A stretch of 33,538 nt of DNA from Candidatus Moraniibacteriota bacterium (GCA_034007405.1 JAVEQZ010000001.1:1-33538), one strand, 5' to 3'. Counted from the stretch's first letter, positions 7,957-13,845 are shown. Numbers and translations are program-made. Notes: a model not told the origin generated them from the sequence alone.

Positions 7957-7980
7957 ATCCTTTTTTTATTCTTTAAATTA

Positions 7981-8141
7981 TTAAATTAAGCGGTATCAAA
8001 CAAAGCCTACTTCAACGCTTTAGCATTGAATTTATTTCCCGAAAAAGAATTCTTTTTTTGTAGCTGCCATAAGAAATGAATGGCCGGAAAAAAAGAAACT
8101 TCATAGGGAAATAAATGGTCTATTCTCTACCGGTTCAATCC
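7981..8141 (-). repeat. Copy 1 of a ~160-nt dispersed intergenic repeat (structured-RNA or MITE-like), 25 nt upstream of the eno ATG
   Basis: It aligns by eye over its whole length with 11782-11942 and 33065-33222. Internal complementary blocks are 7991-7995/8128-8132, 8030-8040/8106-8116 and 8050-8059/8088-8097. The strand is assigned from the neighbouring gene and is uncertain. Confidence 0.7.
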
Positions 8142-8182
8142 TTTTTAAATTATACTCTTTTTTAAAATCAATCACAAGCATC

Positions 8183-11272: not shown

Positions 11273-11719
11273 TTACTTTTCCTCTTTGATTTCGATTATT
11301 ATAGCAGTTTTTATATTTTTCAGAAATTCAATTTCCACCTTTTTTTCTCCCAAATCTTTTATCGGAGCGATCAGCTTCACTTGTCCGCTATTCAATTCAA
11401 TCCCCAATTGGGACTTTATTTCTTGGGCGATTTTTGCTCCGTCTACCGAACCGAAAAGTTTTCCCCCTTTGGCTTTGGCAGAAACGGTTATTTTTTTATC
11501 TTTAATTTCTCGAGCCAACTTGGAAAAATTTTCCATCTCCGCTTTTTCCTTGGCCAGCTTGTCTGAATTATTTTTTTCCACTCTTTTTATCACATCGGGA
11601 GTCGCCACTTGCGCCAATTTTCTTGGAAGAAGCATATTTCTCGCATAGCCGTCGGAAACATTGACCACCTCTCCGACCTTGCCAAGTTTTTTTACATTTT
11701 CCAATAAGACAACTTTCAT
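11273..11719 (-). CDS. rplI: 50S ribosomal protein L9
   Basis: 148 aa. MKVVLLENVKKLGKVGEVVNVSDGYARNMLLPRKLA is the canonical L9 N-domain. Confidence 0.92.
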   Translation of the reverse strand: MKVVLLENVKKLGKVGEVVNVSDGYARNMLLPRKLAQVATPDVIKRVEKNNSDKLAKEKAEMENFSKLAREIKDKKITVSAKAKGGKLFGSVDGAKIAQEIKSQLGIELNSGQVKLIAPIKDLGEKKVEIEFLKNIKTAIIIEIKEEK

Positions 11720-11781
11720 AAGCCCTGAATAAAAATAAAATTAGCCCTCTTTTTAAGACTAAATATTTTTATATTTAAATT

Positions 11782-11942
11782 TTAAATTAAGCGGTATCGA
11801 GTAAAACCCATTTCAATGAAATGACATTGAATTTATTTCCCAAAAAAAGGATTCTTTTTTGTAACTGCCGTATGAAATGAAAGGCCGGAGAAAAAGAAAC
11901 TTTTTTGGAAAATAAATACGCTATTTACCGCCATTTCAATCT
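11782..11942 (-). repeat. Copy 2 of the ~160-nt repeat family, 63 nt upstream of the rplI ATG
   Basis: It is collinear with 7981-8141, and most positions are identical by eye. The outer pairing gcggta/taccgc is preserved, as are the inner A/T-rich pairings. Confidence 0.7.
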
Positions 11943-11990
11943 CTAACCCATTTTATATCAAAAAAATCAGTTTAGCAAGCCAGCCGGAAT

Positions 11991-12030
11991 ATTTAAAAAG
12001 GCGGAGGAATGACTTTTGCCATCCTCCGCC
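11991..12030 (-). terminator. Intrinsic terminator after orphan gene 12038..12409
   Basis: A 9-bp stem ggcggagga...tcctccgcc (12000-12030) is followed on the minus strand by ttttt. Confidence 0.5.
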
Positions 12031-12037
12031 CACCAGA

Positions 12038-12409
12038 TCAAATCTGTTCTTCTTTCATAAGTTCATTGATCCTGAAAATTATAAAAGTCAAATGATCAGA
12101 ACCAACTTTATCAATTATTGATTGAAACTTTTCCAGTCCTCCAAAAAGACATTCCTTATCTTGAATAAAAAAATCGACTTCTTGCTTTTCAAAAACCTTA
12201 TTGAGGTACGAAATTATTTCGTCCATCATCCTTCTCGTGTGATCATCTTTTGCTCTCTCCTCGACAAAAGAAGGATCGTTAAATTTAATGATGAGCCTCT
12301 TGTGCAAATGGGAAAAAATAGTTCTCTTTTGACTTGCGGTAACAATTTCCTCCGTCGAATAAGCTTCGTAAATTGATCTTATTTTTTCCATTACCGTTTC
12401 CGTTTCCAT
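12038..12409 (-). CDS. Hypothetical protein, no recognisable family
   Basis: 123-aa ORF with a good SD (aaaggagaagaaaATG). Its composition is acidic and helical-looking. It lies between its own leader and terminator. Confidence 0.6.
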   Translation of the reverse strand: METETVMEKIRSIYEAYSTEEIVTASQKRTIFSHLHKRLIIKFNDPSFVEERAKDDHTRRMMDEIISYLNKVFEKQEVDFFIQDKECLFGGLEKFQSIIDKVGSDHLTFIIFRINELMKEEQI

Positions 12410-12495
12410 TTTCTTCTCCTTTTTCCATTATTTTGCCTCACTTAGAAATTAAGTTTGGCGATAAAAGTTTCTCTCAATATTTTTCGTCAAAGAAC

Positions 12496-12521
12496 AAAAA
12501 AACCGGTCTCGGAGAGACCGG
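12496..12521 (-). terminator. Leader terminator/attenuator hairpin upstream of orphan gene 12038..12409
   Basis: ccggtctc-gga-gagaccgg (12503-12521) is followed on the minus strand by seven U (12496-12502). It sits inside a 5' leader, not after a gene. Confidence 0.55.
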
Positions 12522-12653
12522 CTTATTTTTATCAAGAAATTTTTTAATTTATTCTTTTCTCGGCAAAAACAAAACGGTCTCTCGTCATAAACCAGAAATA
12601 AAAGTAAAAATATAAAGTTTTTGCTGTTTTTTGAATCATATTTTTCTGAAATA

Positions 12654-12682
12654 ATATTATTCTTTTTTTTATTTTTTGTCAA
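12654..12682 (-). promoter_or_regulatory. Near-consensus sigma70 promoter (TTGACA-17-TAATAT) driving the leader of 12038..12409
   Basis: The minus strand reads ttgacaaaaaataaaaaaaagaataatat. The predicted TSS is near 12647, about 240 nt upstream of the ATG at 12409. Confidence 0.55.
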
Positions 12683-12729
12683 ATTTTAAAAGAGTAATAT
12701 CAAGAGGAACTTAAAAGTTGCAAAAAATG

Positions 12730-12738
12730 TGTTATACT
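12730..12738 (+). promoter_or_regulatory. Extended -10 element (TGtTATACT) upstream of dprA
   Basis: tgttatact lies 30 nt upstream of the dprA ATG. The -35 region (ttaaaa) is weak. Confidence 0.35.
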
Positions 12739-12768
12739 GAAAATACTTTTTCGCTAAAAATAAAATAA

Positions 12769-13845
12769 ATGCTCTATCTAAATGCACTCAATAAAATTCC
12801 CGGCATCGGTCCGCAAAAAATGAAGCTTCTCATGAACCGTTTCGGCGACAGTAAGAAAGTCTGGGAAAGCGATCTCTCGGAAATTATGGCCGGCGGAATA
12901 AATGAAAAATTAGCCCAAATCATTATCAGAGAAAGGGTCCGCATAAATCCCGAGCTGGAATGGGAAAAACTGACTCGCGAAAATATCCGCCTTATCGACT
13001 TCGACAGTCCCGATTACCCCCGCCTCCTCAAAGAAATCCCCTCAGCTCCCTATTTAATCTATTATAAGGGCGATTACGATTTCAATTCCCGACCGCTTTT
13101 AGCTATCGTCGGCTCCCGCAAATTCACCACTTACGGTCAGCAAGTGGCACTTTCTCTGGCTCGTGATTTGGCCGGTGCCGGCATAACCGTAGTTTCCGGC
13201 ATGGCCTTGGGGATCGACACTTTCGCCCATCGAGGAGCGCTCGAAGCGGGCGGACAAACTCTCGCCGTTTTGGGCAGTAGTCTGGAAGACAGTTTTATCG
13301 GACCCAGGACAAATTTCAATCTCTCTCGCCAAATAATCGCCAACGGAGCCTTGCTCAGCGATTATCCGCCCGGCACTCAAGCCACCGCTCAAACCTTTCC
13401 CGCCCGCAACCGACTGATGGCCGGTTTAACCACCGGCACAATCGTGGTGGAAGCCGCCCAACAAAGCGGGACTTTAATCACCGCCAATATGGCGCTTGAT
13501 TTCAATCGAGAAGTCTTTTCTGTTCCGGGCAACATTTTTTCTCCCGTTTCTCAGGGAACCAATTCCTTAATCAAACAAGGGGCCAAAATCATAACCGGCG
13601 TAAACGACATTTTGGAAGAACTGAATTTAACCGACTTTCGTCAAGAAAAAAAGATTCAAGAAATAATTCCCGCCTCCAAAGAAGAAGAAATTATTTTGCA
13701 AATTTTATCCAACGAACCGCAACACATTGACAGAATAATTAAACTCTCTAAAATAAACACTAGTATTGTTTCGTCCACCCTGATAATTTTGGAAATGAAA
13801 GGTTATATCAAAGACATGGGCGGTCAAAATTATATCCGGTATTAA
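12769..13845 (+). CDS. dprA: DNA processing protein DprA (Smf)
   Basis: 358 aa. The Rossmann-like core is present: LLAIVGSRKFTTYG...VVSGMALGIDTFAHRGALEAG...TFPARNRLMAGL...VVEA...SGTLITA. Confidence 0.9.
   Translation: MLYLNALNKIPGIGPQKMKLLMNRFGDSKKVWESDLSEIMAGGINEKLAQIIIRERVRINPELEWEKLTRENIRLIDFDSPDYPRLLKEIPSAPYLIYYKGDYDFNSRPLLAIVGSRKFTTYGQQVALSLARDLAGAGITVVSGMALGIDTFAHRGALEAGGQTLAVLGSSLEDSFIGPRTNFNLSRQIIANGALLSDYPPGTQATAQTFPARNRLMAGLTTGTIVVEAAQQSGTLITANMALDFNREVFSVPGNIFSPVSQGTNSLIKQGAKIITGVNDILEELNLTDFRQEKKIQEIIPASKEEEIILQILSNEPQHIDRIIKLSKINTSIVSSTLIILEMKGYIKDMGGQNYIRY

Follow-up and report, generated by a model that had tools for sequence, protein, structure and literature searches.

A leader upstream of an orphan gene in Moranbacteria is probably an aromatic-codon transcription attenuator of a widely reused cassette family

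What controls a small orphan gene that stands behind a consensus promoter and a leader able to fold in two mutually exclusive ways? The question is raised by a locus in a Candidatus Moraniibacteriota bacterium, within a window (the whole stretch of DNA analysed, 33,538 nucleotides, GCA_034007405.1 JAVEQZ010000001.1:1-33538) that is contig C45 of a 0.9-Mb genome. The minus strand carries, in order, the leader, the orphan gene, a terminator (12030-11995), a MITE copy, rplI and pyrG, and dprA lies divergently on the plus strand. The initial annotation, made from the sequence alone, offered leader-peptide attenuation, a riboswitch and a free-standing sRNA as readings of the leader. The unit is very probably a ribosome-mediated leader-peptide transcription attenuator, which would sense the supply of aromatic aminoacyl-tRNAs and control the 123-aa orphan.

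The consensus promoter reads letter for letter as first described, TTGACA-17-TAATAT on the minus strand (12654-12682). The -35 hexamer TTGACA (12677..12682) was found by eye and by promoter scan and is kept in the congener G007, and the -10 hexamer TAATAT (12654..12659) follows after a 17-nt spacer, the scan giving 10/12 matches. Transcription probably starts near 12647. Over the 7 kb scanned, 25 promoter-like hexamer pairs were seen against 14.5 expected, and the same scan of this AT-rich DNA returned 14 terminator-like sites against 8.5 expected. Taken alone, the hexamer pair is not significant in the window DNA; the conservation of the whole unit among relatives is, judged by sequence comparison, far beyond chance.

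The -10 hexamer ends 14 nt before the ATG of an ORF of 31 codons plus TAA, MIQKTAKTLYFYFYFWFMTRDRFVFAEKRIN (12544..12639, minus strand), for which a 5' UTR of about 8 nt without a Shine-Dalgarno sequence is predicted. Codons 10-17 (12589..12612) encode the regulatory run Y-F-Y-F-Y-F-W-F, eight aromatic codons in succession. Both the ORF and its run are present as the initial annotation gave them, and translation of related copies adds that the ATG and the reading frame are retained. Leader indels in relatives come in multiples of three, and a C-terminal R/G-F-V-F-A motif of the leader is kept at the residue level across relatives.

The leader ORF is separated from the structural gene by an intrinsic terminator (12496..12521, minus strand), the position expected in an attenuator. 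It consists of CCGGTCTC (12521-12514), TCC, GAGACCGG (12510-12503) and seven U (12502-12496), exactly as originally read, and was found again by a terminator scan that lengthens the GC-rich stem from 8 bp to 11 pairs. Upstream, GAGAGACCG (12583-12575) is fully complementary to CGGTCTCTC (12520-12512). This confirms the 9-bp antiterminator proposed by the initial annotation and places it at the base of a much longer structure, an interrupted hairpin of 26 bp (12583-12556 / 12539-12512). The 5' arm (12556..12583), identified by MFE folding, RNAalifold and covariation, lies inside codons 19-28 of the leader ORF, where a ribosome could cover it. The 16-nt apical loop (12540..12555), placed by folding and translation, holds the leader stop TAA (12546-12544). 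The 3' arm (12512..12539), identified by folding and covariation, ends in the 9 nt (12520-12512) that also form the 5' arm and loop of the terminator, and these shared nucleotides make the two helices exclusive. The MFE fold has an energy of -39.5 kcal/mol (z = -4.2), and 0/200 shuffled sequences fold equally well. A further segment, CUGGUUU (12595-12589), which carries the F-W-F codons, can also pair with the 3' arm of the terminator.

The proposal of a terminator/antiterminator switch was followed up by comparative alignment. The RNAalifold consensus of 25 aligned copies is the long hairpin, with 22 pairs, 9 of them showing compensatory changes. For the antiterminator and its extension, 93.0% of alignment cells are paired and 13 pairs are double-changed, a result matched by 0/500 shuffles, and control pairings slid along the alignment reach 36-60%. 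The terminator is paired in 88.9% of cells in 25 relatives, with double changes in 4/8 pairs. Given covariation in both helices, both alternative structures are under selection. The sequence in the middle of the long helix (GTTTGTTTTTGC / GATAAAAATAA) is more conserved than pairing alone would need.

Two side features were seen around the terminator. Just 3' of the U-tract lies GTTCTTT (12489..12495, minus strand), which is near-invariant across families of the order in two alignments and more conserved than a distal U-tract would require. An A-rich stretch before the terminator gives rise to a weaker plus-strand terminator-like call at 12503-12521, and no plus-strand gene ends there.

How far does this unit extend beyond one genome? 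Over 153 nt the leader and its G007 counterpart share 97% identity, compared with 38% for the downstream orphan protein, and blastn across the order finds stretches of 140-160 nt that are 70-83% identical in several families. A covariance model (R1) was built from the switch part alone, with the codon run deliberately excluded. Full-length R1 matches occur in 81/151 genomes of the order (Moranbacteria), often with 2-5 per genome, and in a phylum-wide sample 2/150 other Patescibacteria genomes have a full-length copy; both of those copies also carry aromatic mini-ORFs. The window copy scores 99.8 bits, which is high by construction given its place in the seed alignment, and independent members score 35-107 bits. 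A cassette was assigned to the family if it combined a full-length R1 match, an ATG-initiated ORF ending in the hairpin loop and a promoter abutting the ORF, and the window copy has all three. The cassette always lies directly upstream of a gene and in the same orientation. The element thus defined belongs to an apparently undescribed family, which the lineage reuses with different codon runs before many genes.

In G007, an insertion of about 170 nt (L002:680-850, minus strand) separates the leader ATG from the conserved promoter, sitting exactly between the two. Compared with 11775-11950 and 7975-8150 of the window, it proves to be a copy of the MITE found there at 11782-11942 and 7981-8141, with 78% mean column identity. 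Tandem cassettes occur in many relatives, both in genus g102 (L020-L030) and in the window's own genus (L007, L009, L010). Their order is an aliphatic leader, a small fast-evolving ORF, an aromatic leader, a small ORF, and then pheA/tyrA or rplI-pyrG. The g102 tandem cassettes directly follow rpoD, and the window has the aromatic cassette only.

A total of 122 non-redundant elements were gathered, with the ORF count made on 120 and the promoter and codon-run counts on 117. An ATG-initiated ORF spans the region upstream of the hairpin in 113/120 elements, compared with 10.0 expected from shuffles and 3 in a reverse-complement control. Among the 122 elements, most leader ORFs have 24-36 codons and terminate within the apical loop, the median position of the stop being +34 counted from where the model begins. 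Variability of the ORF by codon position is 25/29/35, and therefore residue identity is little constrained. Promoters with a TTGACA-type -35, a 16-18 nt spacer and a -10 could be placed in 91/117 members, with the distance from -10 to ATG most often being 6 nt (in 30 elements), followed by 8-9 nt (in 25). This spacing suggests that the mini-ORF is leaderless or near-leaderless in the family, where the typical 5' UTR would be 0-3 nt. The efficiency of initiation in the window copy is uncertain because its predicted 5' UTR of about 8 nt is longer than the family norm and lacks a Shine-Dalgarno sequence.

Does the codon run follow the genes behind it? The 117 leaders fall into 62 aromatic, defined as at least 6 aromatic residues within a 10-residue stretch, 33 Ile/Leu/Val, one Asn/Asp and 21 with no clear run. 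The element nearest to genes for prephenate dehydratase or dehydrogenase (pheA/tyrA) is aromatic in 10/10 cases and that nearest to LeuA-family genes aliphatic in 3/3 (Fisher p = 0.0035), a test that, like the counts, overstates independence because the genomes are related. On a single contig of G011, an Ile-rich leader, MKKQINIITISIIMICDIIAHRDRFVFARKI, precedes a gene for citramalate synthase (TIGR00977, 671.6 bits) and a Leu-rich leader, MKSIKRQLQILLGLELLEKRGQFAFVWKR, precedes one for 2-isopropylmalate synthase (TIGR00970, 744.6 bits). The Asn/Asp-rich leader, MQKYQICKNDNNDNDDSL..., stands before a gene for an Mqo-like oxidoreductase. Among the relatives, an aromatic leader can also stand before proS, csoR-copZ/A-like (csoR-HMA) genes, a ROK kinase gene, genes for the gamma and delta subunits of 2-oxoacid:ferredoxin oxidoreductase, and many orphan genes; the window's own target is likewise an orphan and no gene of an aromatic pathway. 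Therefore, the logic is not strictly one of a leader placed before its cognate pathway.

The genome of the window (G000) holds a second leader of this design. With its CCC-run peptide, MKKINFIFSCCCSPQIIPRLCFVC (C1:13643-13757, minus strand; L039), it is a weak R1 match, and 34 nt beyond it comes a gene of the cysteine synthase family (TIGR01136, 326.5 bits, just below the cut-off). Within this ORF, UUCCGAG can pair with the terminator 5' arm CUCGGAA, and the stop lies at the start of the loop. The Cys leader is one of five weak R1 matches in this genome; the other four were rejected as ordinary gene-end terminators. A scan of the whole genome for the same architecture yielded 6 candidates, and codon runs are found in the window copy and the Cys copy only. 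The tyrA-pheA pair of G000 is on another contig (C34, L043:1036-2021) and has a plain TTGACA promoter and no such leader; this differs from several relatives, in which an aromatic cassette precedes tyrA/pheA.

The codon run thus corresponds to the pathway in family members that have pheA/tyrA, citramalate synthase, isopropylmalate synthase or cysteine synthase genes behind them. This correspondence, like the anatomy of the unit, its conservation and the covariation of both helices, is an observation on the DNA and its relatives. A point against attenuation is that codons for Phe, Tyr, Leu and Ile arise easily in T-rich DNA. The suspicion in the initial annotation that the aromatic run might simply reflect T-rich sequence is met by the occurrence of one and the same chassis with Ile, Leu, Cys and Asn/Asp runs. 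The attenuation option of that annotation has gained support from the conserved ORF, from the stop in the loop and from a codon run that follows the pathway. Matches of this kind would be predicted by leader-peptide attenuation and by none of the micro-protein, sRNA or riboswitch readings.

The general mechanism of leader-peptide attenuation, as outlined in PMC1183508 and PMC3082878, can be mapped onto the window copy as follows. RNA polymerase would initiate about 8 nt ahead of the AUG of the 31-codon mini-ORF, and a ribosome would load on the near-leaderless RNA and trail the polymerase. With ample Tyr-, Phe- and Trp-tRNA, the ribosome would pass codons 10-17 and reach the stop in the apical loop, where it would melt the 5' arm (12583-12556) and release the 3' arm. 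The end of the released arm could then pair with 12510-12503 to form the terminator, such that the transcript would end near 12496. With scarce aromatic tRNA, the ribosome would stall within codons 10-15, still at least about 12 nt short of 12583. In that case the long hairpin would be the first to form and would sequester the 5' arm of the terminator, allowing read-through into the orphan gene. We infer the stalling, the coupling of ribosome to polymerase and the termination response from the arrangement of these segments. The antiterminator hairpin has a computed energy of -28.8 kcal/mol, compared with -12.9 kcal/mol for the terminator hairpin; given so much more stable an antiterminator, termination would need tight ribosome-polymerase coupling. 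There is no segment-1 pause hairpin, and therefore an untranslated leader should default to read-through.

Could the RNA itself be the product? If the unit of about 150 nt were a free-standing, trans-acting sRNA, as the initial annotation suggested as an alternative, the ORF and the alternative pairing would be accidental features. The unit does have its own promoter, a strong terminator and a highly conserved sequence, and in Sinorhizobium a terminated attenuator RNA is described as acting in trans (rnTrpL, PMC6614838). Such a reading is nevertheless very improbable here. The ORF, its frame and the position of its stop in the loop are all conserved, and the codon run is the most variable part of the unit and changes amino-acid class together with the downstream gene. 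Moreover, the unit always lies directly upstream of a gene in the same orientation, and no Rfam sRNA family matches. A trans role added to attenuation could coexist with it and would leave these features unexplained.

A similarly small chance is given to the peptide as the product, in which case the 31 residues would form a functional micro-protein, perhaps a membrane peptide, with the hairpins serving only as its terminator region. The conservation of the ORF, the C-terminal motif held at the residue level and the hydrophobic stretches of many family members all fit this idea. However, the hydrophobic stretch spans 8-12 residues and is interrupted by charges, which is too short for a membrane helix, and base pairing accounts for the conserved C-terminus, whose codons fall on the 5' arm of the antiterminator. 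Within a class the residues of the run vary freely, with little third-position bias, and Asn/Asp- and Cys-run versions exist. Nor would a micro-protein lead one to expect that the runs match pheA/tyrA, cimA, leuA and cysteine synthase genes.

Control without translation, in which a ligand, a protein or an uncharged tRNA stabilizes one of the helices, is extremely unlikely. The mutually exclusive terminator and antiterminator would suit a riboswitch or an antitermination system, as would the conservation of the helix middle beyond pairing, but the unit is one long hairpin with no multi-helix junction and no conserved unpaired pocket resembling an aptamer. The remark in the initial annotation that no known riboswitch class was recognized agrees with an Rfam scan of 11500-13300 (E up to 10), which returned no match near a gathering score, and with a gathering-score scan of six related loci, which returned no family. 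The best leader-type match is Phe_leader (RF01859) at 23.7 bits (E = 0.42), against a gathering score of 55. It and the other sub-threshold matches (MicF and the L10, L20 and Thr leaders) align chiefly to the terminator. A tRNA/tmRNA scan of the region was also negative. Riboswitch control has no need of a conserved ATG, an open frame or class-specific codon runs. Finally, chance coincidence of a promoter-like pair, a gene-end-type terminator and a T-rich frame has a practically negligible probability. Sites resembling promoters and terminators do abound in this AT-rich sequence, but the whole unit is kept across families with covariation and ORF retention.

If leader-peptide attenuation is accepted, what is the gene that it would control? 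The Shine-Dalgarno sequence AGGAG (12420-12416) and the 123-aa orphan gene (12038..12420 including this site, minus strand), with its ATG at 12409, were identified by ORF translation. The ATG lies 87 nt past the U-tract, close to the 90 nt or so first estimated. The gene is followed by a terminator, GGCGGAGGAT...ATTCCTCCGCC plus T5 (11995..12030, minus strand), read from the sequence, and the same hairpin follows the homologue in G007. Therefore, the unit is closed as a monocistronic one. The orphan protein matches no Pfam or NCBIfam family. A word-based protein search found 2 proteins, and an exhaustive phmmer search found only 3 relatives among 1.84 billion representative proteins; the single clear relative in 60 related genomes is that of G007, with 38% identity. 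An AlphaFold model is all-helical with a pLDDT of 77.6, and a Foldseek search of the PDB gave no match with E < 2. The possibility of a divergent AroQ chorismate mutase was considered, and nothing supports it. A homologous family of about 120 aa is found behind the aromatic leader in 8 elements of the genus, the window's own included, and in the congener G006 the homologue lies between the aromatic leader and pheA. At a set of loci that includes the one with the Asn/Asp-rich leader (L064 on G125:C12, L012/L024, L033, L034, L084 and L107), several 300-470-aa proteins without a Pfam family are encoded behind the cassettes. Some of these have ATP-grasp-like motifs, and their genes are often followed by M20-type peptidase-like genes.

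Classical attenuation requires a ribosome closely behind RNA polymerase. Conserved switches of this kind in several copies would thus imply transcription-translation coupling in the ultra-small, uncultured Patescibacteria. The family also would imply that charged-tRNA supply is sensed gene by gene despite the reduced genomes of the CPR. In practical terms, the cassettes may flag genes that respond to shortage of a given amino acid, including orphans with no other functional clue, and adding the family to RNA-family libraries would let the mini-ORFs and leaders be annotated. The arrangement is in effect a compact natural design, in which one conserved terminator/antiterminator chassis takes interchangeable codon runs and the start is leaderless. 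A bolder reading, which is tentative and rather doubtful, is that a portable cassette has been duplicated and re-tuned by swapping of the run, wiring both the few biosynthetic genes that are left and dozens of fast-evolving, lineage-specific small proteins into starvation "ribulons". The orphan might then take part in the response of an ultra-small symbiont to the loss of aromatic amino acids supplied by its host or community.

How does the unit compare with known systems? A literature search that covered sources outside subscription journals found no paper joining leader peptides or attenuation with Patescibacteria or CPR. The nearest counterparts are the classical attenuators of E. coli, pheL-pheA together with trpL, hisL, leuL, ilvL and thrL. 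These likewise have a short upstream ORF with a regulatory codon run, an intrinsic terminator before the structural gene, and an antiterminator that shares a terminator strand and reaches into the final part of the leader ORF, such that the position of the ribosome decides the outcome. As with pheL-pheA, aromatic runs precede pheA/tyrA in Moranbacteria relatives. However, there is no sequence or covariance-model similarity to the Rfam Phe_leader family, the score cited above being far below gathering. The run is a mixture of Tyr, Phe and Trp here and Phe only in pheL, the leader has 31 codons here and about 15 there, and here the mini-ORF is near-leaderless without a Shine-Dalgarno sequence and the target is an orphan gene. 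Unlike the classical attenuators, the unit works with three RNA segments instead of four and lacks a 1:2 pause hairpin. In contrast to the enterobacterial leaders, one sequence-conserved chassis serves several amino acids; we know of no recognizable homology among the enterobacterial attenuator leaders themselves.

Mycobacteria are also described as having sensory mini-ORFs that are leaderless and carry a codon run, with several per genome forming a "ribulon"; these polycysteine short ORFs, as outlined by Canestrari et al. (10.1101/834739), act on translation and not on termination. The window's genome likewise pairs a Cys-run copy with a cysteine synthase gene downstream. In addition to the difference in phylum, the competing structure here is an intrinsic terminator with a U-tract, and therefore transcriptional control is implied. 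Leader-peptide attenuators outside the Proteobacteria include those predicted by comparative genomics for Actinobacteria (PMC1262725) and the Corynebacterium ilvB uORF (PMC10272879). They are recognized by the same comparative criteria, a codon run and alternative helices upstream of amino-acid genes, and are set apart, at the level of abstract descriptions, by their other lineages and unrelated sequences. The terminated transcript and the peptide of rnTrpL/peTrpL in Sinorhizobium meliloti are outlined as able to act in trans (PMC6614838, PMC7298713); with no known sequence relation to that system, the product of about 150 nt may, by analogy, have a second job in trans. The mechanism itself is, on the analogy drawn here, already known as classical attenuation. 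What would be new as a class is one sequence-conserved chassis with different runs, a leaderless start, a three-segment logic and frequent orphan targets.
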